Virus record (IMG/VR): IMGVR_UViG_3300045988_137643
Coordinates: 28,377 to 92,376 of that record
Source of the DNA: a virus
Lineage: Duplodnaviria; Heunggongvirae; Uroviricota; Caudoviricetes
DNA length: 64,000 nt
Strand: one strand, 5' to 3'
Shown here: one piece after another, positions 4,046 through 46,428 of the stretch
How the letters are laid out: each line of letters begins with the position of its first letter
Numbering within the stretch: the first letter of the stretch is position 1
Notes under the pieces: model-generated
Told to the model about the DNA's origin: nothing
Database searches by the model: none
Seen by the model: the letters and a program-made list of their open reading frames with translations, nothing else
Position numbers and translations under genes: made by a program

Positions 4046-7000
4046 ATGGAACAGTTCAAGAAGAAAAAATTACCGCTTCTTATTGCCGGTGCTGGTGGCA
4101 AGAAAAGTAAAAGCTCCAGCCGTACTCCGGTTGAAGCTGATGATACTGTCAATTCTCGTGCTATGGCAGCCATCCTCGACCTTCTTGGCGAGGGGGTTAT
4201 CGGTGGCCTGGTAAATGGCGCAAAGTCGATCTTCATCGACGATTTACCGATCTTGAATGAAGATGGCTCTTCCAACTTCAGCGGTATTACATGGGATTTT
4301 CGTGACGGCTCACAAGACCAGACGCCAATGGCTGGTTTTGATTTTGTCGAAACGCCTAAGTCCGTAAATATTCAGCTTAAAAAAACACACGACGTTACGG
4401 TTTCAATCGATAACGATGAAGCTGATCGCGTTCGTGTCATCATGAAATTCCCATCTTTACGTAGCGTTGATAAAAGCTCTGGCGATACAAATGGCACTAC
4501 GGTGAAGTACAAATTCCAGATCGCCAACGGAGACGCAACATTTTCTGATGTAGTGGCAGAAGGTGAGAAAAGCGTTGATATCACGCTAACGGCAAAGAAA
4601 ACCGGCGTGTATTACCGTAGCTATGAGCTGAAACTGCCTAAGCCTGGTCGTGCATACAAGGTTAGGGTGATTCGTCTTACAGATGATAACAGTAGCCAGT
4701 ACCTCTACAACGACACATGGGTTGATTCCATCGGTGAGATTGTCGACACGCCAATGAACTACCCTAACTCAGCTCTTGTTGGCTTGAAGGTCAATTCAGA
4801 GCAGTTTGGTAGCACAATGCCTTCCCGTTCGTATTTGGTGCGCGGTATCAAAATCCGAGTACCGTCAAACTACAACGAATACACCAATACTTATGTCGGC
4901 GTATGGGACGGTACTTTTAAGCTGTTGTCTTCTTCAAACCCTGCGTGGATTCTCTACGATTTGCTTACCAATACTCGGTATGGTCTTGGGCAATTTGTGT
5001 CGGAATCCATGATTGACCTCGGCCAGCTCTACCAGATTGGTCGATATTGTGACGAAGAGGTCGATGATGGCTTTGGGGGTAAAGAGAAACGCTTTGCAAT
5101 CAATACGCAGATCACCAGTCGACAAGACGCATACCGATTAATTCAGGATATTGCCGGTGCATTCCGCGGCATGGTGTTTTGGGCTGGTGGCATGGTTAAC
5201 ATCATGCAGGATAGCCCATCAGATCCGGTAATGATGTTTACCAACTCCAACGTCAAAGATGGACTATTTACCTATAAAGGTTCTGCGCGTAAAGATCGCC
5301 CATCCGTTGCGCTCGTAACCTACAACAACAAGGAGGACGGTTATAAGCAAAACATCGAGTACGTTGAAGATCAGGACGCAATGCGCCGTTATGGTGAGCG
5401 TAAAACAGAAGTCGTAGCATTTGGATGTACAAGCCGAGGCCAGGCTCACCGAGTTGGTTTGTGGCTTTTGTATACCGCCAGAATGGAGTCGGATGTAATT
5501 ACATTTACTGCCGGCTTAGACGCCTCATTTCTGATGCCCGGTGAAACCGTTCTGATTCAGAACAAATATCGTGCAGGTAAACGTAACTCCGGTCGAATTG
5601 TGGAGTTTACCAAAAACAGCATCACTCTCGATGCGCCTGTGTCGTTAGCTAAAAGCGGCAGCTTTATTCGGATATTGAATCAGGAAGGCAAAATCGTTGA
5701 ACGCGATGTTCTTGAAACTGGCGAAAACATAACAAAGGTTACGTTTTCAAAAGCTCTGTCGTCAGCGGAAACGCCTGTTTTGAACGGTGTCTGGACAATT
5801 ACAGAACCAGATCTCGAACCTATGCGCGTTCGCATCGTTAACATCGCGCAGGGGGAAACGCCGGGTAGCTTTGACATCACCGCTGTTGAGAACAATCCGT
5901 CTAAATATGAGGCAATCGACAATGGTGCAACGCTTATCCCGCAGAATACGACGGTATTGGACCCGACTTACTCTAAGCCATCTAATTTGCAAATCACTGA
6001 AGGGACTTACCTCTCAAGCCCGGGAAACCTGTCAGTAAAACTGACTGCAACATGGGAAGGGAAATCTCCAGAGTATTGGATCAGTTGGCGACGTTCTGAT
6101 GAAAACAATGTATCGAACTGGCAATCGGCGCGTGTAACCGAAGAGCAATACGAAATCGTTAATGTAGCGGAGAATGGACGCTACGACTTCCAACTGTATG
6201 CGGTTTCATTCAACGGTAAAAAAACAGAAATTATCAGTACCGTTTATCAGGTGCTGGGAACAATGACACCGCCGGATGCACCAACGTCATTAACGGCCGT
6301 TGGAGACTATCGTAATGTGATACTGAATTGGGTTAATCCAGATTCGGTAGACCTTGATCACATTAATGTTTACGCATCCCAGACCAACAATCTGGATACG
6401 GCGAAACTGATCGCAGAGTCTGCAAGCACCACCTTTACACATGCTGGTCTTGGGGATAGCGAAACGTGGTATTACTGGGTTCGAGCATCGAACAAGCGAG
6501 GTATGTTAAGCCCTCCGAACTCAAACTTGGGTACAGAGGCGACAACTCGCGATGTACTGTCGTTCCTGGCTGGCAAAATTACATCTTCCGAGCTTGGTCA
6601 GGCTCTGCTTGAGGACATCAACAGCAAAGCCTCTCAAGAAGCAGTTGACGAGTTAAATGAGCATATCAACCAGAGCGTCGAATCTTTGGAGGGGTCGGTA
6701 AACGACGTTAAGGAAGATATAGCTGAATTAGATAAGCAGTTCAGCGATAACCTCGCGGATTTTGAAATAAAATTCAACGAGCGTAGCGATGCTTTGGAGA
6801 ACGCACAAACCGAACTTAAAGGTGAGGTTTCGGCAACGATCGACAAGGTCAATGAAGCGTTTGAAAAAATTGATGCTACTGATGCTGCAATTGTTGAAAT
6901 CGAAAACACCGTATCTGAACACGATAAAGCTCTCGCTAATACAGTCGAGGCAATAAAGGCTGCAAGAGATGAAGCAGCAGCTCTTATTGCTAAGGAAAGC

Positions 7001-11800: not shown

Positions 11801-12519
11801 GTACAGCCAATATTAACTTACCTGGTGTGAATACGACCGGTAATCAGAACACTACTGGTAATGCTGCAACCGCCACAAAATTGCAGACAGCAAGGAAAAT
11901 TGCTGGTGTGGCGTTTGATGGCTCTGCCGATATTACTTTGACTGCGGCTAACCTTAATGCTTATACGAAAACTGAGGTAACAAACCTTCTAAGTTCCTAT
12001 GCAAGCAGATCATCACTGACAGGCTATAGTGGCAACCTGGATATTATCGCTGAAACACTGGTTGTCAAATCAGGCGGTAGTGGAGGGTTTGCTATATGGG
12101 ATATTGGCACAACTACTAGCGGTGCCAATATGTACATTGATCCAAACCCAGGTATCAATACAGTTTGGCGTTCAACATCTTCAAGGCGCTATAAAAAGGA
12201 TATTGAAACATTACAAGATCGATATGCTGATGAACTTTTGTCATTAAGACCTGTTTGGTATCGTTCAATTTGTCGAGGTGACCGAAAGGATTGGGGGTAT
12301 TACGGCCTTATTGCTGAAGAGGTTGGTGAGATTGCCCCGCAATATGTCCATTGGCGTGAACCAACAAATAATGATTCTCCAGAAGATATTTCCTCAAATG
12401 GTATGGTCGCTGAAGGGGTGATGTATGAGCGTTTGGTTGTACCACTCATTCATCATATTCAGCAATTGACCAAAAGGGTTGAGGAGCTTGAAACGAAGTT
12501 AAATTCACCTAAAGAATAA
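8863..12519 (+). CDS. Side tail fiber protein (lambda Stf-like N-terminal region) with C-terminal S74-type intramolecular chaperone
   Basis: Ala/Ser-rich heptad region with KASETNAKASETAAG-type units as in lambda Stf; 40-aa repeats; C-terminus SSRRYKKDIE...GLIAEEV typical of autoproteolytic chaperone domains. Confidence 0.8.
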   Translation: MWYREGTITFTQGSNTLVGVGTAWNVTANGVLPGMIVIGPDNKLYEIKRVTSDTNIVLSEPYTGETQSEVPCRIITTYEGDLTQFSARFTALMSRMSADSKSMRSWLTALDEVTIEREDGTEVTVKPLMQIVNEHNENVEWYKNNTDAIDAAGDKAREAAASAAAAAESANTAGEKASQASQSASAAASSQSAASASATAAKKSETNAESAYVAAAESASVASTKASEAATSASSASASKDAAKASETNASSSANAAASFATEAENSSKAAKASETNAKASETAAGQSASSANSSKSAAEASASAASASADSASSSATAAGKSAESASSSATTATAKATEATNQATAAKNSASAAKSSETNAKTSEDNAASSKAAAAESASSASASATSASASKDEATKQASAAKGSASTASTKATEAAGSATAASQSKTAAESAAARAEAAADRAEEIAGAVAMEDASLTTKGVVKLSSAVDSTSESLAATPKAVKAANDNANSRLAKNQNGADIPGKDTFTKNIGAGRAFGGSVSTTAGNWTTAQFVEWLDSQGAFNHPYWMCKGSWSYGNNKIITDTGCGDIHLAGAVIEVMGIKSAMTIRVTTPTTSSGGGTANAQFTYINHGTDYSPGWRRDYNTKYKPTPSDIGALSTSGGTVSGPLSVTGGLTGSLNGNASTATKLQTARTIGGVAFDGSANINLPGVNTAGNQSTTGNAATATKLQTARTIGGVSFNGTANIDLPGVNKAGNQSTTGNAATATKLQTARTIGGVSFDGTANINLPGVNAAGNQNTTGNAATATKLQTARTINGVSFNGSANISIPTITSRGRVTALTGTTQGAATGLQMYEAYNNGYPSTYGNVLHLKGATAVGEGELFIGWSGTSGAHAPVHVRSRRDTDTSSWSEWAQVYTSKDSIPGVNATGNQNTTGNAASATKLQTARTIGGVSFNGTANINLPGVNIAGNQNTTGNAASATKLQTARTIGGVSFNGTANINLPGVNTTGNQNTTGNAATATKLQTARKIAGVAFDGSADITLTAANLNAYTKTEVTNLLSSYASRSSLTGYSGNLDIIAETLVVKSGGSGGFAIWDIGTTTSGANMYIDPNPGINTVWRSTSSRRYKKDIETLQDRYADELLSLRPVWYRSICRGDRKDWGYYGLIAEEVGEIAPQYVHWREPTNNDSPEDISSNGMVAEGVMYERLVVPLIHHIQQLTKRVEELETKLNSPKE
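10830..11940 (+). repeat. About nine 40-aa (120 bp) tail-fiber repeats, interrupted at 11290-11570
   Basis: Repeated unit PGVN.(A)GNQNTTGNAATATKLQTARTIGGVSFNGTANINL. Confidence 0.8.
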
Positions 12520-12579
12520 ACAACTTCAATCGGGGCTGGAACTAAACCAGCCCCTGCTTAAAAGTATAAGGATATATTT

Positions 12580-12834
12580 ATGAGCTATGGTGCACAGGTT
12601 TGGTCGCCATCAAGACAGGAGATGGTCGATGCGTTGGCCCCTGTTTATTACCTCGATTATTTTACTCCCTCTGGTTCTGGAAGTAGAACATATGATGTTG
12701 AGGCGGGATTGGGAATCGACTATTACATAATGGACGTAACCAATGGGAAATACACAAGTCTTACGGTTTCTGGAAATACCATTTCATGGTCTGGAGCTAG
12801 TGGTAATTTAAACATATTGGTTTTTCAAAAATAA
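12580..12834 (+). CDS. Hypothetical protein downstream of tail fiber
   Basis: ORF with AAGGA RBS; no recognisable motif. Confidence 0.3.
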   Translation: MSYGAQVWSPSRQEMVDALAPVYYLDYFTPSGSGSRTYDVEAGLGIDYYIMDVTNGKYTSLTVSGNTISWSGASGNLNILVFQK

Positions 12835-13442
12835 TGTACGGAAGCAAGATATATCGATCTGACGGGAAGGTCTGGATGTCTCCTTCTTTGTCTCCTATCG
12901 TTTTTCAGAGAAAGCAGGTTGTTTCTTTATCCGGCGGGACAGAGTTTAACACCCAAATATCTCCAGATCGTTCACCGATGATTTTTGTTGCCTATTCGAA
13001 AGCTGTTTCATTAATAGCCAACAGAATAGTGCGTAACAACCAGGTGATTTACAGTTTCGGAGGTCAGGGTAGCGACTCTAGTGCCACGATATACGTATTT
13101 TCGAAAGGTATAGCCAAAAAAGAAACTTGGGGCATGAGTTTTTTCAATGCACAAGGGGAGGAAATCTATAATACGGCAAATATCCCACTTTCATTTACCT
13201 TTCTTAATAATACGGAGTGGAACAGCTCTGGAGGGCATGTTTTTGATTACCCACCAGCGATAATCCCAACATATGCGAATGTGTTCGCTGTTCCAGTACC
13301 GGGCGGAGCCATGACAATGGTTTATGGATATGCGGCATATGGAAATACTGTTAGCTCGATATTCGTAAACCAACTTAATGGCGGCCATAGTTTTAGCGTA
13401 AATGGCAGAGTACCGGTAATAAATAGAAATCTGTATAACTGA
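12834..13442 (+). CDS. Hypothetical protein, possibly tail-fiber associated
   Basis: Start overlaps upstream stop (TAATG); no recognisable motif. Confidence 0.3.
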   Translation: MYGSKIYRSDGKVWMSPSLSPIVFQRKQVVSLSGGTEFNTQISPDRSPMIFVAYSKAVSLIANRIVRNNQVIYSFGGQGSDSSATIYVFSKGIAKKETWGMSFFNAQGEEIYNTANIPLSFTFLNNTEWNSSGGHVFDYPPAIIPTYANVFAVPVPGGAMTMVYGYAAYGNTVSSIFVNQLNGGHSFSVNGRVPVINRNLYN

Positions 13443-13449
13443 TGAGTAA

Positions 13450-13683
13450 ATGATGAAAAGATTATTTCTAACAATAGCTGTTGTTCTCTCTCTTACTGGC
13501 TGCCAGAAATTGCCGACACCTATATGTTATGGTGAGGCTATCATTGGTGGACAGGAGACAGTCATACCTATATATGCTGTTAAAAAGGTTAACGGCTATA
13601 CCTTATACAAAGCGGGTAGCATCTATAACTGGCGATGGGTTGGAGTAGGTGCTTTCTCATCTGTGCGTTGCAATGCTGAATGA
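13450..13683 (+). CDS. Small lipoprotein, candidate superinfection-exclusion protein (Cor/Llp-like position)
   Basis: Signal peptide plus lipobox LSLTGC; 77 aa; directly after receptor-binding genes. Confidence 0.4.
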   Translation: MMKRLFLTIAVVLSLTGCQKLPTPICYGEAIIGGQETVIPIYAVKKVNGYTLYKAGSIYNWRWVGVGAFSSVRCNAE

Positions 13684-28333: not shown

Positions 28334-29437
28334 ATGAAAAATAGCTTTGACAGAGCACGCGCTGCGGAGAACACCTCAAAAGAGGCGATTGAGTATCTCG
28401 AAAGAGCATCTCAAATGCAGGCCGTTATGATCTCGCAGGTTAGCATTGATATGAGATTCTCGGACGCATTCATGTTATTCACTCGCTTATCTCTGCTGAT
28501 AACCAGACGTCGGCCAGAGATCGCTGTTCATTGTATTTTGATACATGTTTTGCCGCACATTGCCGATGTAAAAGTAAGTGACATTAATAGGTTCATGGTG
28601 AACCAACTGGTCAACCCACTAATACTGGATGGCAAAATTGTTATGGGCCGCCGCGTTTTCTCTCTGATGAAGCAGTTCCTTAGCTGGTGCGCCTTCCAGG
28701 GGATGATAGACGTGTCACCGTTAAACGATATGTCACTAAACAAAGTTGCCGGTGGCGCAAAGCCCACACCTCGCGAGCGGAAGCTGACCGACGCAGAGGT
28801 ATGGGTGTTCTGGAATATATGGGACTACTTCAATGTGTGCGCTGGTACAAAATGGGCGGCCAGGCTGTGTCTTGTATCAGCAAGACGACCTGACGAAGTA
28901 CTGCGGGCTAAAAAAAGTGAGTTCAATCTTAAGCGTGGGGTTTGGAATCAAGGCAAGAGAAACAAGTCAGCACGTGAGCATTCGCTGCCTTTAAGCACAT
29001 TAATGCGCACATGCATTGAAGAGTTGTTCGAATACGGTAAAGACAGCCAGTGGCTCGTGCCTTCGAATAAAAAAATCGGGAAAGACCTTCCTATGTCTAA
29101 AGTGGCAATAGCCCAGGCATTACGTCGTATTCTGGAACGACCAGAACTGATGGAGCTTGAGCCATTTACACCCCGAGATTTGCGCCGTACTGCGCGTAGT
29201 TACTTCCCAGCATTAGGCATAAGCCAGGAGGTATCACGCAAAATCATGAACCACAGTCTTGAGGGGATAGATCGGGTCTACGACCGGCACGATTATATGG
29301 ACGAGATGCGAGACGCCTTAGAAAGTTTCTCGACGTACATCGCATCAATCGTAGAGCAACCGGATTTAGACGAAATTGACCACAAATTCAAGGGAGATCG
29401 TCTATCAACAGAGCTTATTCGTGTAAATTTTTCATAG
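28334..29437 (+). CDS. Tyrosine recombinase (phage integrase family)
   Basis: 367 aa; C-terminal catalytic-region residues (DLRRTARS, HSL, VYDRHDY). Confidence 0.7.
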   Translation: MKNSFDRARAAENTSKEAIEYLERASQMQAVMISQVSIDMRFSDAFMLFTRLSLLITRRRPEIAVHCILIHVLPHIADVKVSDINRFMVNQLVNPLILDGKIVMGRRVFSLMKQFLSWCAFQGMIDVSPLNDMSLNKVAGGAKPTPRERKLTDAEVWVFWNIWDYFNVCAGTKWAARLCLVSARRPDEVLRAKKSEFNLKRGVWNQGKRNKSAREHSLPLSTLMRTCIEELFEYGKDSQWLVPSNKKIGKDLPMSKVAIAQALRRILERPELMELEPFTPRDLRRTARSYFPALGISQEVSRKIMNHSLEGIDRVYDRHDYMDEMRDALESFSTYIASIVEQPDLDEIDHKFKGDRLSTELIRVNFS

Positions 29438-40489: not shown

Positions 40490-41563
40490 ATGGCAAAAGG
40501 AAAATCCGCACTGGCACTTGCTCTGAAAAAGAAAATCGGTAGCAACGACGAAATTCAGAAAGTAACCCATTGGATTGACACAGGCTTTCCTCCGTTAAAC
40601 AAAGCTATTTCAGGTCGTTACGATGGCGGTTTCCCATGTGGTCGTATCGTAGAAGTATTCGGGCCGCCAAGCGCGGGGAAAACCTTTTTGGCAACAGCAG
40701 CAATGATCTCCGCTCAGAAACAAGATGGTCTGGCGGTATTCCTCGATCATGAGAACAGTTTTGACGTTGGCCTGGCGGTAGCCAATGGCCTGAATGCAGA
40801 TGAGGATGACGGCCAGTGGGTATACAAGCAGCCTGATACCTTCGAAGACTCTGTAGAGTTGATCGGCACAATACTTAAATTGGTACGTGATGAAGAGCTT
40901 ATCCCTGAATCAGCACCTATCTGTATCGTGGCTGACTCACTTGCGTCTATGGTTCCGAACTCCAAAGCCGAGAAGTTCGAAAAGATGGCTGAAGGCACTG
41001 CCAAAGACAAAGATCAGCTAAACATGAACGACAATACGGCGCTTGCTCGTGCGACGAGCGCGAACTTCCCCACTCTGGCTTTGTGGGCACGCAAATATAA
41101 CGCCTGCATCATCTTCTTGAATCAGGTTCGCACAAAAATCGGTGTAATGTTTGGCGACCCTACGACGTCACCAGGCGGCGATTCACCGAAGTTTTACGCT
41201 TCTGTGCGCATCCGTCTCGGTGCATCGGTGATGAAGGATGGTAAAGAGAAGATCGGTCAGGACGTAGGCGCAGAGTGCATCAAAAACAAAGTTGCACCAC
41301 CGTATGGCAAATGCACCTGGAAATTCTACTTCGATCCTACTCGTGGCCTCGACGTTATCGAATCGCTCGTCGAGTACATGCTGGATGAAGGATACCTGCC
41401 AAAGAACGCCAGCGGGCGCGTAGAAATTGGTGACAAGAAATACACCAAATCACAGATCGTCGAGATGTATCGGGAGAAGCCACTAGCTGAAATCATTGCG
41501 GCTTTACAGGCAATCGACGACCGGAGATCAAAAGACAATCCCACCGAGTCAGTAGAAGAGTAA
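40490..41563 (+). CDS. RecA/UvsX-like recombinase
   Basis: GG.PCGRIVEVFGPPSAGKTFLA RecA-type Walker A context; 357 aa. Confidence 0.7.
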   Translation: MAKGKSALALALKKKIGSNDEIQKVTHWIDTGFPPLNKAISGRYDGGFPCGRIVEVFGPPSAGKTFLATAAMISAQKQDGLAVFLDHENSFDVGLAVANGLNADEDDGQWVYKQPDTFEDSVELIGTILKLVRDEELIPESAPICIVADSLASMVPNSKAEKFEKMAEGTAKDKDQLNMNDNTALARATSANFPTLALWARKYNACIIFLNQVRTKIGVMFGDPTTSPGGDSPKFYASVRIRLGASVMKDGKEKIGQDVGAECIKNKVAPPYGKCTWKFYFDPTRGLDVIESLVEYMLDEGYLPKNASGRVEIGDKKYTKSQIVEMYREKPLAEIIAALQAIDDRRSKDNPTESVEE

Positions 41564-41568
41564 ACACA

Positions 41569-41593
41569 AGGCGTCCACAGGACGCCTTTTTTA
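41569..41593 (+). terminator. Rho-independent terminator
   Basis: AGGCGTCC-aca-GGACGCCT then TTTTTT. Confidence 0.6.
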
Positions 41594-41655
41594 TCTCTTG
41601 AAAATATATAAGTACTTACTTATCATTTTCGCATAACAACCACATAGGAAAACAC

Positions 41656-41856
41656 ATGATCAAAATCTATCTATTGGCAGTAGCCACAGGCCTTTCAGTG
41701 GCTCTCATCTACGGATTACTGGTTCCGTCGCTGATTTCTGCAAAGAGTGATTTGGCCGTCATGCTTGGAGTTCTCGTTGGTTTTGGTACTCCTGTAATCG
41801 GTCTTATTGCTGGTCGTAAGTTTATTAACTCATTAATCAAAGCAAAGGGGAAATAA
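41656..41856 (+). CDS. Small two-TM membrane protein
   Basis: 66 aa, two hydrophobic helices; directly upstream of SPFH lipoprotein. Confidence 0.3.
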   Translation: MIKIYLLAVATGLSVALIYGLLVPSLISAKSDLAVMLGVLVGFGTPVIGLIAGRKFINSLIKAKGK

Positions 41857-41859
41857 GTA

Positions 41860-42690
41860 ATGAAGAAAGGTTTACTTGCAGTTGCTCTGGCGGCTATTTG
41901 CACAATGGGTCTTACTGGCTGTGATCGCGTAGAGCCTGGATACGTTGGCATCAAAGTAAACAAATTAGGTGAAGACAAAGGGATTGGTGAAGTGGTTGGC
42001 GTTGGTCGCCAATGGACAGGTCTTAACACCGAACTTTACGTATTCCCGACCTTCAAACAAATGAAGACCTACGACGAGCCGTTCACATTCCAGATGAGTG
42101 ACGGTACTGCTATTGGTCACAAAATTGGCGTTGCGTATCTGGTTAATCGTGACAAGGTAACGACGGTGTTCCAGACCTATCGCAAAGGCGTAGACGATAT
42201 CACCGAATCAGATCTGCGTCAGAAAATTGCCGACTCTCTAAACCGTTTGGCCAGCCGTATGACCACTGACTCATTTATCGACGGTGGTAAGGCACAATTG
42301 CTGGACAACGCACTGAAAGATATTCAGAAAGAGATGTCTCCGGTTGGTATTGAGGTACTGAGCCTGTCATGGGTTGGAAAGCCTGATTACCCAAAAACCG
42401 TCATTGAATCTATCAACGCCAAAGTAACGGCTAACCAGCGTACTCTGCAACGTCAGCAGGAAGTTGAACAACGTAAAGCTGAGGCGAATATGCTACGTGA
42501 ACAGGCTAATGGTGAAGCTGATGCTATCCGTGCTCGTGCGCAAGCAGAAGCAGACGCCATTCGTCTGCGCGGTGAAGCTCTGCGTCAAAACCCGAACGTT
42601 ATGGAGCTGGAAGCCATCAATAAATGGAATGGCCAGTTACCGCAGTACATGACTCAAGGGGCTAACACTCCTTTCATTACAGTGAAATAA
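41860..42690 (+). CDS. SPFH/band-7 domain lipoprotein
   Basis: Signal peptide with lipobox LTGC; HflK/C-like coiled-coil C-terminus. Confidence 0.55.
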   Translation: MKKGLLAVALAAICTMGLTGCDRVEPGYVGIKVNKLGEDKGIGEVVGVGRQWTGLNTELYVFPTFKQMKTYDEPFTFQMSDGTAIGHKIGVAYLVNRDKVTTVFQTYRKGVDDITESDLRQKIADSLNRLASRMTTDSFIDGGKAQLLDNALKDIQKEMSPVGIEVLSLSWVGKPDYPKTVIESINAKVTANQRTLQRQQEVEQRKAEANMLREQANGEADAIRARAQAEADAIRLRGEALRQNPNVMELEAINKWNGQLPQYMTQGANTPFITVK

Positions 42691-42708
42691 CTCTCTTTGA
42701 GAAGATCA

Positions 42709-42734
42709 GGCGTCCAGTTGGACGCCGTTTTATT
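42709..42734 (+). terminator. Rho-independent terminator
   Basis: GGCGTCCA-gt-TGGACGCC then GTTTTATT. Confidence 0.55.
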
Positions 42735-42785
42735 CTCGTTATTATCACACACAAGAAAACAATTTGTTAAAAGGTTAAGTTAATT

Positions 42786-43610
42786 ATGCCCAACCACATT
42801 ACAAACGAAATCCGAGTCATAGGTGGTACAAATAAACAACGCTTAGATTTCATACGTGCCATAACTAACAAAAAAGGTCTAATTGACTTTAATACCATTT
42901 GCAGACGTCCGAAAAGTATAGAAATGGAAGAAAACAATCATATCAGGCGCATGGCCTCTGCAATGGCGGGCGAAACAGTTTACGACTACATGTTCGGTGA
43001 ATTAAAGACTCCAGAGCAGGTCGAATTAGCTATGCGTGAATCAGGAATGACACGCAAGGAAATTCGCAAAATCAAAGAGCAGGCTCTTATGCGGCTTGAG
43101 AATTATCGTCGCTATGGCTATTACTCGTGGTTTGACTGGTCGCGAGCTAATTGGGGAACAAAATGGAATGCCTACAACATCGAAATGCCCGTAAAACGTA
43201 TCCCTACACGTATTAAGTACGGCCATAATTTCCGCCATACACACGTTCGAGCATATGCAAAACGAATCTATAAAAAACGTCTTGCAAGACATGCCGCAAC
43301 TGGTGGTGAGTTGGTGATTCGCTTTGAAACAGCCTGGTCTATGCCAAAACCAATTTATCAAGCGATGGCTAGAAAGTTCCCGCACCTTGAGTTTGTAATA
43401 CGTTATGCAGACGAAGACTTCGGCAATAACTGCGGATTCATTTTACTTCGCAACGGCAAATGGGAATATGACTACATTGCACCGGCGAATAACGAACAAT
43501 CGTCAGAAGAAAAAATCAAATGGCGCAAGTTCGCCTTTGAGTTATGTTGTCCGGGTATTACTCCACAAGAATACGGTCTAAATGAAGAATACGAATACGC
43601 CGGATATTAA
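42786..43610 (+). CDS. Hypothetical protein
   Basis: ORF; Trp-rich segment YSWFDWSRANWGTKWNA. Confidence 0.3.
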   Translation: MPNHITNEIRVIGGTNKQRLDFIRAITNKKGLIDFNTICRRPKSIEMEENNHIRRMASAMAGETVYDYMFGELKTPEQVELAMRESGMTRKEIRKIKEQALMRLENYRRYGYYSWFDWSRANWGTKWNAYNIEMPVKRIPTRIKYGHNFRHTHVRAYAKRIYKKRLARHAATGGELVIRFETAWSMPKPIYQAMARKFPHLEFVIRYADEDFGNNCGFILLRNGKWEYDYIAPANNEQSSEEKIKWRKFAFELCCPGITPQEYGLNEEYEYAGY

Positions 43611-44869: not shown

Positions 44870-45295
44870 ATGGCAGCAATTAAGAAACTCTACGATGCCG
44901 CAAACGCGGCTCTGGATGTTATTGATGATGAAGTATCAAAAGGCTTTCCTGAACCTGATTGGGCGCATCAGCTACGAAACGCTATCGCCGAAATGAATCC
45001 ACCAAATCCGACAACCGACGAGACAGACTGGCAGCGATTTATCCGTATGTACGCTCAGGAAATAGGTCCAACGCCAACGGCAGAGCAAGCAATGCTGCTG
45101 AAATACTTCAAAGAGGCGGGAGAGGATTTACCAATTGATGACTCAGCATATTGGTTCCACTGCGCATGGCGTAAGTATGACGTGATATTCACGCAAGGTA
45201 TGGGAAGCAAAGATATGGTTGTGTGGCATCTACTCCATATAGACACAGCCGTTGACAGAGTTATTGAACAGTTTTTCCCTAAACAAGAAGATTGA
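44870..45295 (+). CDS. Hypothetical protein
   Basis: ORF with GGAGAAG RBS. Confidence 0.3.
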   Translation: MAAIKKLYDAANAALDVIDDEVSKGFPEPDWAHQLRNAIAEMNPPNPTTDETDWQRFIRMYAQEIGPTPTAEQAMLLKYFKEAGEDLPIDDSAYWFHCAWRKYDVIFTQGMGSKDMVVWHLLHIDTAVDRVIEQFFPKQED

Positions 45296-45350
45296 TCGCC
45301 TATTCGTAACTAACAAAATAAGTAAACACTAACCACAAAAGGAAAAACAC

Positions 45351-45626
45351 ATGAGAGTTTTAGTTCGAATCGTTACCAGCACTGTCTATGACGTGTTTCC
45401 GCTTTTTATGGTCAAAGCCGATGGCCTTAACGACGAAGAAACTGACGCGCTGATCCAGCGTATTCTCGTTGAATATACAGGTCATGACGCTGATTCAGTG
45501 ATGGTTGATGATGATGGTGTTTGTTGGCATAACGGCAACTGTTGGTACGTAGAAGAGACTCAACAAATCAGTGATGAAGATGCCGCACATCTTGAGCGTA
45601 TTTTAAGCATCAGCACTTTTGAGTGA
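45351..45626 (+). CDS. Hypothetical protein
   Basis: ORF with conserved AAAGGAAAAACACATG start context. Confidence 0.35.
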   Translation: MRVLVRIVTSTVYDVFPLFMVKADGLNDEETDALIQRILVEYTGHDADSVMVDDDGVCWHNGNCWYVEETQQISDEDAAHLERILSISTFE

Positions 45627-45841
45627 GTTTACAGTAAAATTTATATAAGTTAGTATCTACCTATCATGAAGATTTTTATTGAATACTTGTTACTCATCGT
45701 GTCAGTAGCTTTTGTCATCGACTGCATTTTCACTGGTGTCATTCGTAAAGTCTTTTCCCCGGTGAACGACGTAGTAATAAACGCTTTGGCTATCGTGCTC
45801 GTATTTAATTCAGCATTTGATGTAATCAAAGAGGTGGCAGC

Positions 45842-46177
45842 ATGAAGGCCATCCCATTCGCGCTGTTGTTCCTTTCTTCGATCGTTGTGGCCGACACCAC
45901 TGTTTATCAGTGTGAAATGTCTGTAGCCGACGTTAAGAATGGCGCTCTTACCGACGTCATAAAAGCACCATATGGAGCGATGGTCGTAGACAGCGGCGAC
46001 CAGTTCTATGTTGTGCGTGACGATCGAGTGTTGTCATCCCCATATCTCACAAACCGTAATGGCAAATTAACCGGCGTCGGAGAAGACCACTTCGTATACA
46101 ACAAATACAAGGGCTTCTATGGCGTTCACGCTTCTCAGCAAAGCTACCTTTTCGATGACTGCAAGGAGGTTGGATAA
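45842..46177 (+). CDS. Secreted hypothetical protein
   Basis: N-terminal signal peptide MKAIPFALLFLSSIVVA. Confidence 0.3.
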   Translation: MKAIPFALLFLSSIVVADTTVYQCEMSVADVKNGALTDVIKAPYGAMVVDSGDQFYVVRDDRVLSSPYLTNRNGKLTGVGEDHFVYNKYKGFYGVHASQQSYLFDDCKEVG

Positions 46178-46389
46178 TGGCATTAACACTGGCAGGTCTG
46201 GAAATCGAGAAAACAAGCGGCTACTGGCGTGCTAAGGGTTTCAAGCAGCCTGGCATTCTTGAGCGTCTGGAACGTGAAGATGGGTATATCGTCCACCAGC
46301 GGCGTGAATGGCGTATGTACGATCCAGAAACAGGAAAACTGACTACAAAAGCCGGAACACTTTGGGGTCTGTTAAAGAAAATACACTAA
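46177..46389 (+). CDS. Hypothetical small protein
   Basis: ATGA-coupled to upstream ORF. Confidence 0.25.
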   Translation: MALTLAGLEIEKTSGYWRAKGFKQPGILERLEREDGYIVHQRREWRMYDPETGKLTTKAGTLWGLLKKIH

Positions 46390-46397
46390 ATACAAAC

Positions 46398-46428
46398 TGA
46401 CTGCGGCACGTTCCGCAGTCATATTTCA
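46398..46428 (+). terminator. Hairpin terminator candidate
   Basis: TGACTGCGG-cacgtt-CCGCAGTCA then tatttc. Confidence 0.4.

Follow-up and report, generated by a model that had tools for sequence, protein, structure and literature searches.

We analysed a stretch of 64,000 nucleotides (the window; positions 28,377 to 92,376 of the IMG/VR virus record IMGVR_UViG_3300045988_137643) in which two adjacent genes encode a small membrane protein with two transmembrane (TM) segments and a lipoprotein with an SPFH/band-7 domain (Table 1). An original prediction, made from the sequence alone, had called both open reading frames (ORFs), with the two-TM miniprotein preceding the SPFH gene, and had assumed a phage-plasmid. 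The positions, the gene order and the setting were all confirmed, far beyond what chance would give, and both ORFs are on the plus strand. Over 41500-42800 the window matches E. coli plasmid p009_B (NZ_CP048306.1) at 100% identity, the Escherichia phages Cyrano, PhiR41_1 and CMS-2020a at 92-98%, and Salmonella phage SSU5 at 79%. Judged by these relatives, the source element is an SSU5-like phage-plasmid of E. coli. The two ORFs are in the same frame with a 3-nt gap, and the GGGGA Shine-Dalgarno sequence of the SPFH gene is located within the 3' end of the partner gene. The short gap, the single promoter-like site and the single terminator, together with conserved adjacency and the existence of natural fusions, argue that the two genes are co-transcribed. 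The pair is best explained as an autonomous two-gene phage cassette consisting of a promoter, two translationally coupled genes and a terminator. The cassette holds a single SPFH ORF, with the two-TM miniprotein and unrelated ORFs as neighbors, and no hflK-hflC-like pair of paralogous genes.

Table 1. Features of the two-gene cassette and its boundaries, in window positions
Feature	Position	Strand	Basis
Intrinsic terminator hairpin AAGGCGTCC-aca-GGACGCCTT plus T-run; ends the recA-like gene and forms the upstream boundary of the cassette	41568..41588	+	terminator scan
Sigma70-like promoter TTGAAA-17 nt-TATCAT (predicted function)	41598..41626	+	consensus scan, 10/12 matches
Two-TM hairpin partner, 66 aa	41656..41856	+	ORF, hydropathy, PHROG 1130
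SPFH/band-7 lipoprotein, 276 aa	41860..42690	+	ORF, Pfam Band_7, PHROG 200, lipobox, AlphaFold2 model, Foldseek
SPFH protein: signal peptide, residues 1-20
SPFH protein: lipobox LTGC with Cys21, followed by Asp22	41920-41922 (Cys21)
SPFH protein: Band_7 domain, residues 23-209	41926-42486
SPFH protein: coiled-coil helix, residues 179-243	42394-42588
Second terminator hairpin GGCGTCC-agtt-GGACGCC plus T-run; downstream boundary of the cassette	42709..42736	+	terminator scan, pattern search

The identity of the larger protein is clear from both sequence and fold. Its score with Pfam Band_7 (PF01145) was 106.2 bits (E 2.6e-30; gathering threshold 23.6), with profile positions 2-176 of 176 aligned, and it matched the PHROG 200 'lipoprotein' profile at 3e-108. 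A flotillin match over the coiled coil stayed below the Pfam threshold. The NCBIfam equivalog cut-offs for HflC (TIGR01932, 30.2 bits versus 134.4) and HflK (TIGR01933, 18.7 versus 159.4) were missed. The AlphaFold2 monomer model, built from 58 sequences with a pLDDT (predicted local distance difference test score) of 82.8, has an anchor helix, a beta-rich SPFH1, an alpha/beta SPFH2, a continuous helix of 65 residues, a short second helix and a disordered tail, in that order. A Foldseek comparison with the PDB returned 64 matches at E<=0.001, with HflC/HflK (7vhq, 4e-14), prohibitin (8rrh) and erlin (9vvj) at the top and stomatin, flotillin and QmcA-YbbJ next. The top fold matches are all cage-forming SPFH proteins. 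At the sequence level, the best match with a solved structure was again 7vhq HflK/HflC, with an E value of 0.007. The HflK/C-like coiled coil that had been proposed from the sequence was thus recovered in the model, and the remote homology search suggested as a check gave HflK/C, prohibitin and erlin as the closest solved folds. The residues invariant throughout the family include W256 and G258, which belong to the C-terminal KWNGxLP...PF tail; by sequence comparison, the KWNGxLP motif is specific to this subfamily. The last 20 residues are disordered in the monomer model, as would be expected for a cap segment.

The N-terminus reads MKK-GLLAVALAAICTMG-LTG followed by Cys21 and Asp22, which gives an n-region, a hydrophobic core and a lipobox of the form [LVI][ASTVI][GAS]C. 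The lipobox Cys is kept in 53 of 54 aligned distant relatives, and from this Cys onward the sequence reads CDRV in 97 of the 120 closest cluster representatives. Loss of the Cys was found more than once. In a sister allele of SSU5-like plasmids (P0002-P0012) the lipobox Cys is changed to Tyr, and in a second clade (P0075, P0076, P0081, P0082) it is changed independently to Tyr, Trp or Phe. These relatives are otherwise intact and 73-96% identical, and all three replacements are single-base changes from the Cys codon. The lipidation site has been lost repeatedly, which suggests that an uncleaved signal anchor can take the place of the lipid.

The 66-residue partner has hydrophobic segments at about residues 4-27 and 33-53, separated by a five-residue SAKSD turn, and a basic C-terminal tail with a net charge of +5. 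According to the positive-inside rule, the basic tail and the two TM segments predict an N-in/C-in orientation, which would put the turn LLVPSLISAKSD in the periplasm. The family form of this turn is P-x-hydrophobic-hydrophobic-S, and it is the invariant part of the family while the TM residues drift. The protein matched the PHROG 1130 'membrane protein' profile (7.6e-26), a family classed as 'moron, auxiliary metabolic gene and host takeover'. Neither Pfam nor NCBIfam gave a family match for the partner, 60 of its relatives matched no Pfam family, and a profile search with the partner returned only proteins named 'hypothetical protein'. When 61 members of the partner family were scanned singly, none matched NfeD (PF01957, at E<=1), Imm or the holin families. 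By sequence, then, the partner represents an unnamed family that is not NfeD. The likeness to NfeD-SPFH operons put forward in the original prediction is valid in that a small membrane protein stands beside an SPFH gene; the partner itself, having neither a PF01957 match nor a soluble OB-fold domain, is not an NfeD protein. A role as holin or antiholin was also considered and found no support; no holin family was matched, and the lysis cassette, placed by size and by synteny with the holin, endolysin and Rz genes of Cyrano, is about 28 kb away, roughly at window 12250-13530.

The two genes have diverged at very different rates. Between the window and Cyrano, the partner gene has a nonsynonymous rate (dN) of 0.15 and a synonymous rate (dS) of 0.645, and the resulting dN/dS of 0.23 indicates purifying selection. 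The SPFH proteins of the two elements are identical (dN 0, dS 0.027). The difference in dS, 0.027 versus 0.645, therefore points to a recombination breakpoint between the two genes or at their junction. At the protein level the partner is about 27% diverged from its Cyrano homologue, and the mosaic boundary is sharp (window 41656-42690 compared with positions 4157-5191 of the Cyrano record, L172).

The linkage of the two proteins extends well beyond the SSU5-like elements. Directly 5' of the SPFH gene, a partner ORF with the turn motif is present in P88 (P2-like), phiP27 (an Stx phage) and KpCHEMY26 (N4-like), and in PVP-SE1 the two genes are separated by one ORF. The partner gene of phiP27 (AJ298298, our record L002, 4756-4944; 62 residues) is unannotated and lies directly upstream of L05, a 'putative serine protease'. 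Among close viral contigs, 78 of 80 carry the partner, and the remaining two have a disrupted or truncated copy. Of 80 distant environmental viral contigs (SPFH identity to the window protein about 35-45%), 47 have a two-TM ORF with the turn motif beside the SPFH gene, in most cases overlapping or abutting the SPFH start, and in 19 more a different small TM ORF precedes the SPFH gene. In phiCbK a different multi-TM protein takes the place of the partner.

In some members the two proteins are joined in one chain. Among 116 parsable representatives of distant clusters at 50% identity, at least 15 are fusions of the order hairpin, third TM helix and SPFH domain, and 12 of them retain the partner motif. 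Another 24 of the 116 have no lipobox and carry an N-terminal hydrophobic anchor only. P0021, with 77% identity to the window protein, is a further fusion, as is a protein of a Rhodopseudomonas prophage. A model of a fusion protein has three TM helices with a pLDDT of about 85. The fusions imply that both proteins are functionally linked, and they fix the topology, with the ends of the hairpin inside and the SPFH domain outside. As read from their sequences, the TM-anchored and the fused variants can sit only in the inner membrane with the SPFH domain outside. Because of these relatives and of the Asp at position +2, we assign the family to the periplasmic side of the inner membrane. The outer-face location in the original prediction is kept to this extent, and an outer-membrane location is disfavored. 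The same evidence speaks against a receptor-blocking outer-membrane lipoprotein of the Cor/Llp type.

A tblastn search found the SPFH protein in 413 phage records. Many of these carriers are strictly lytic, namely N4-like Schitoviridae, PVP-SE1/rV5-like myoviruses, Felix-like Erwinia phages, Bruynoghevirus, Caulobacter phage phiCbK, Lak megaphages and crAss-like phages. When 1.84 billion cluster representatives were searched exhaustively, 2816 relatives came out, 195 of them at E<=1e-30. Two distant bacterial members that were examined lie in lambdoid prophages, between repressor and integrase, and phiP27 has the same layout. In lytic phages the SPFH gene is among the early or middle genes, such as RNA polymerase II and dUTPase in the N4-likes, ligase and exonuclease in PVP-SE1, and polymerase and ligase in phiEa104. 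A copy is present in 373 (about 7%) of 5426 complete E. coli genomes; 195 plasmid places contain the whole pair, and 204 chromosomal places have about 75% identity. All contexts examined were those of a phage or prophage. Databases already list the SPFH gene as encoding an SPFH domain protein. The papers searched do not appear to describe the conserved partner, which is not NfeD and is fused in some members, the periplasmic topology of the lipoprotein, or the distribution over lytic and temperate phages, including N4 gp19-gp20. The literature on phage SPFH proteins, N4 gp19/gp20 and genome-wide phage essentiality screens offered speculation or nothing relevant; papers that name these genes call the role unclear or speculate on lysogeny by analogy with HflK/C.

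The cassette has predicted transcription signals of its own. In the whole 64-kb window the stem GGCGTCC/GGACGCC is present at just two sites, 41570-41586 and 42709-42726, which flank the cassette, and 0 occurrences are expected by chance. The twin hairpins may mark the boundaries of an inserted moron-type cassette. Cyrano keeps both hairpins and both promoter hexamers, although the intergenic sequence around them differs. The promoter spacer contains a perfect palindrome of 10 bp (TAAGTACTTA, 41609-41618), with one mismatch in Cyrano, that could be an operator for a dimeric regulator.

Expression of the Cyrano homologues, CYRAN_56 and CYRAN_57, could be followed in published RNA-seq of LF82 (PMC9928086, S1 Table; log2(5+FPKM), where FPKM is fragments per kilobase per million; two replicates, one strain). 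After overnight growth in LB medium, the values for the two genes were 2.32/2.32 and 4.3/3.0, at or near the detection floor, and after 1 h in medium they were about 5. At 6 h inside macrophages they reached 7.6/7.7 and 7.25/7.4 (PMC9928086), a rise of about 10- to 40-fold. The flanking recA (4.05) and CYRAN_58 (about 4.0) did not move at 6 h in macrophages, and CYRAN_56/57 are absent from the list of lysogen-expressed genes in the Cyrano paper (PMC9928086). With its flanks silent, the cassette is therefore transcribed independently of its neighbors and is not constitutively on in the lysogen. In the same data set several other small Cyrano genes were strongly raised in macrophages, with CYRAN_60-62 going to log2 8.3-9.0 and CYRAN_46 to 10.8 (PMC9928086 S1); homologous ORFs lie downstream of the cassette at about window 45350-46400. 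The macrophage-induced Cyrano genes are patchy and form no coherent lytic programme.

Comparison with known systems places the pair among SPFH assemblies while setting it apart from each of them. E. coli HflK/HflC, the FtsH-modulating SPFH cage (7vhp, 7vhq, 7wi3, 9cz2), has the same order of membrane anchor, SPFH1, SPFH2, long coiled coil and C-terminal cap segment, and occupies the periplasmic side of the inner membrane that is predicted for the phage protein. In contrast with HflK/HflC, the phage protein is only about 17-18% identical and below the equivalog cut-offs, would have a lipid anchor rather than an N-terminal TM helix, comes from one gene rather than a heterodimeric pair, and has a separate two-TM partner. 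QmcA-YbbJ, the SPFH-NfeD pair (8z5g; fold match 2e-7), resembles it in that an SPFH gene is co-transcribed with a gene for a small membrane protein, and in that the partner is probably within the membrane patch under the cage. The phage partner, however, has only two TM helices and a short periplasmic turn where YbbJ has an NfeD/OB-fold domain, and, whereas QmcA faces the cytoplasm, the phage SPFH protein is predicted to face the periplasm. N4 gp19-gp20 represents the same module. Over 274 residues gp20 has 64% identity, gp19 has 41% identity and the turn LLPSMVSA, and the gene order and overlap are as in the window pair; the differences are that N4 is strictly lytic and that the gp20 lipobox is LTSC followed by Tyr-Asp. 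Members of PHROG 1130 and PHROG 200 also occur in PVP-SE1, phiP27, P88, SSU5 and Cyrano.

Based on these results, we put at about even the chance that the pair forms an inner-membrane SPFH assembly on the periplasmic side, with a dedicated two-TM partner, that acts mainly during infection. The 276-residue product would be exported, lipid-modified at Cys21 and kept in the inner membrane by Asp+2, so that the SPFH domain and the coiled coil are periplasmic. It may then assemble into a closed multimeric dome, as HflK/C, prohibitin, erlin and stomatin do, fencing a patch of inner membrane from the periplasmic side with the KWNGxLP...PF tail as its cap. The hairpin would be a dedicated in-membrane subunit of the fenced patch, and its periplasmic turn P-x-L-I-S-A-x-S/D may touch the membrane-proximal SPFH1. 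Its part would be that of the NfeD TM helices for QmcA, or that of the helices of HflK/C themselves. In this manner the phage may, early in infection, set up a compartment on the inner membrane of its host that conditions the membrane; in temperate carriers the compartment might be made under envelope or intracellular stress. For the purpose of such a compartment, we would rank highest that the inner membrane and the proton-motive force are kept intact until programmed lysis or under stress, then that the entry of superinfecting phage DNA is blocked, then that FtsH is trapped or competed for, with interference in FtsH/HflKC, and last that the module is a moron with a conditional benefit to the host. 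Any single one of these roles is tentative at best. Given how common the module is in lytic phages, its place in early regions and its silence in lysogens grown in LB, a function at the time of infection is likelier than one confined to lysogens, and the module is probably not specific to the lysogenic state. For that reason the lysogen fitness and the prophage superinfection exclusion of the original prediction became doubtful. The module is common in the strictly lytic N4, N4-like phages and PVP-SE1, it is placed with early and replication genes, and its expression in LB-grown Cyrano lysogens is at background; the rise in macrophages allows for a conditional lysogen role.

Several observations count against the model of a periplasmic, partnered assembly. 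Other clades of the family have Glu, Ser, Thr or Tyr at +2, and N4 gp20 has CYDR; therefore, sorting may differ between clades. To our knowledge, Asp at +2 followed by Arg is not a tested retention signal. Of the 80 distant contigs, 14 are without a partner, as are Pseudomonas phage TL and Erwinia phage phiEa104. Oligomerization and contact with the partner are projected from homologues by analogy, and in the literature up to 2026 we found no experiment on any subfamily member and a role that is called unclear. The macrophage signal consists of two replicates and comes from the relative Cyrano rather than from this element. The major capsid and major tail genes of Cyrano are also up at 6 h in macrophages (PMC9928086), which makes partial lytic induction in a small subpopulation an alternative to stress-specific induction. 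Finally, the evidence does not separate membrane protection, exclusion and FtsH control from each other.

Superinfection exclusion would have the periplasmic cage and the hairpin block the DNA entry of a second phage across the inner membrane, early in infection by lytic phages, as with T4 Imm and Sp, and from the prophage in lysogens. The envelope location and the early-region placement suit both lytic and temperate carriers, the much faster divergence of the partner than of the SPFH gene (window versus Cyrano) is as expected of a protein facing variable invaders, and the category of PHROG 1130 is also in line with such a role. However, neither protein matched a PADLOC-DB 2.0 defense model at E<=1, no member matches any Sie family, and the partner dN/dS is that of a gene with no overall positive selection. 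Moreover, constitutive exclusion from a prophage is unlikely because the Cyrano homologues are at the floor in LB and off the lysogen-expressed list. We therefore consider exclusion unlikely, and the absence of a PADLOC match also led us to reject any known defense system. The comparison with T4 is a functional analogy for exclusion only, for Imm as for the periplasmic Sp. Imm is likewise an early, small two-TM inner-membrane protein encoded beside a lipoprotein gene, but there is no detectable homology (hhalign probability 2.7%, despite a shared 'IY.LP..I' look), Imm.1 is not an SPFH protein, and the gene order is reversed. In T4 (L171, 4374-5014), imm lies directly downstream of imm.1, which has the lipoprotein signal LAGC. 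The 'superinfection exclusion protein' annotated upstream of the SPFH gene in PhiSH19 is soluble and unrelated.

Control of FtsH, which several authors have suggested, would work by mimicry of or competition with host HflK/C in the periplasm, altering FtsH proteolysis of phage or host substrates such as CII-type lysogeny regulators or membrane proteins. The ranking of HflK/HflC as the best solved match in both sequence and fold, and the shared predicted membrane side, fit this idea, and the gene of lambdoid prophages maps to the early leftward region, in the repressor-integrase interval where lambda keeps cIII. Yet the scores are far under the HflC/HflK equivalog cut-offs, one SPFH gene stands in place of an hflK-hflC pair, and the module is common in strictly lytic phages, which have no lysogeny decision to make. 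A lysogenic-conversion factor, that is, a stress-induced moron that aids the host through envelope resilience or as an immunostimulatory lipoprotein virulence factor and is put to a different use in lytic phages, draws on the promoter-like site and terminators of the cassette, on its rise in LF82 inside macrophages with silent neighbors, and on the E. coli genomes that carry a copy. It can also point to PM0222 of P. multocida, a prophage-encoded HflK/C-like protein of similar size (25-35 kDa), envelope-associated and found in outer-membrane vesicles, which is reported as a virulence factor signaling through Toll-like receptors (TLR) 1/2, as a triacylated lipoprotein would. But PM0222 is at most a candidate member of this subfamily and its reported role is in host inflammation rather than phage biology; Cyrano capsid and tail genes go up at that time point as well; the expression data are limited to two replicates of one strain; the recurrent change of Cys to Tyr, Trp or Phe argues that lipidation, and hence TLR2 signaling, is dispensable; and the dominance of lytic phages among the carriers is left unexplained. 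Both FtsH control and lysogenic conversion strike us as improbable, each to the same degree. The product names given to relatives in phiP27 L05, P88, Stx2 phages and Pseudomonas phages, if taken as correct, would make the protein a serine protease or a transposase fusion protein. Band_7 was the only domain detected, searches of Pfam and NCBIfam up to E 1 gave neither a protease nor a transposase domain, and the SPFH fold and coiled coil account for the whole chain, so the likelihood that these names are right is negligible. The names probably go back to an older label, 'membrane protease subunit, stomatin/prohibitin homologue'.

In its broadest form, the model of a periplasmic assembly would make the module, shared across phages from N4 to phage-plasmids, Stx phages and megaphages, a virus-controlled cage on the outer face of the inner membrane, which either seals the membrane against phage DNA and pore-formers or captures a host machine such as FtsH. 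We regard this as a doubtful extension. If true, it would define an unrecognized class of phage host-takeover or exclusion device and the first SPFH cage with a defined viral function. The structures of the SPFH cages (HflK/C, prohibitin, stomatin, flotillin and erlin) are well resolved, and their functions have been hard to pin down. This subfamily faces the periplasm, has a minimal partner of 60-70 residues that is sometimes fused, and occurs in the tractable phages N4, P2-like P88, SSU5 and Cyrano. It may thus offer a compact system to ask how an SPFH cage affects a bacterial membrane and why such a cage is retained by phages of every lifestyle. Should the module affect exclusion, the timing of lysis or survival of envelope stress, it would matter for the annotation of therapeutic phages, where such genes are sometimes read as a lysogeny marker, as well as for the biology of phage-plasmids in clinical Enterobacteriaceae and the intracellular survival of lysogens.

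The neighborhood of the cassette shows some further variation. On the 5' side, on the plus strand, is a replication and recombination block with dnaE, a 5'-3' exonuclease and a recA-like recombinase (40490-41563), and tail genes lie further upstream. The recA-like gene encodes 357 residues in the window versus 779 in Cyrano (L172, 1724-4063), and some related plasmids have a LAGLIDADG homing endonuclease annotated at this site. Both observations suggest an intein or homing-endonuclease insertion in the relatives and none in the window. One relative, P0018 (303 residues), is a chimera of the first ~226 residues of the SPFH protein and the C-terminal half of ORF 44870-45295, with window 41860-42540 joined to about 45080-45295, and it implies a variant of the element with a deletion of ~2.5 kb.

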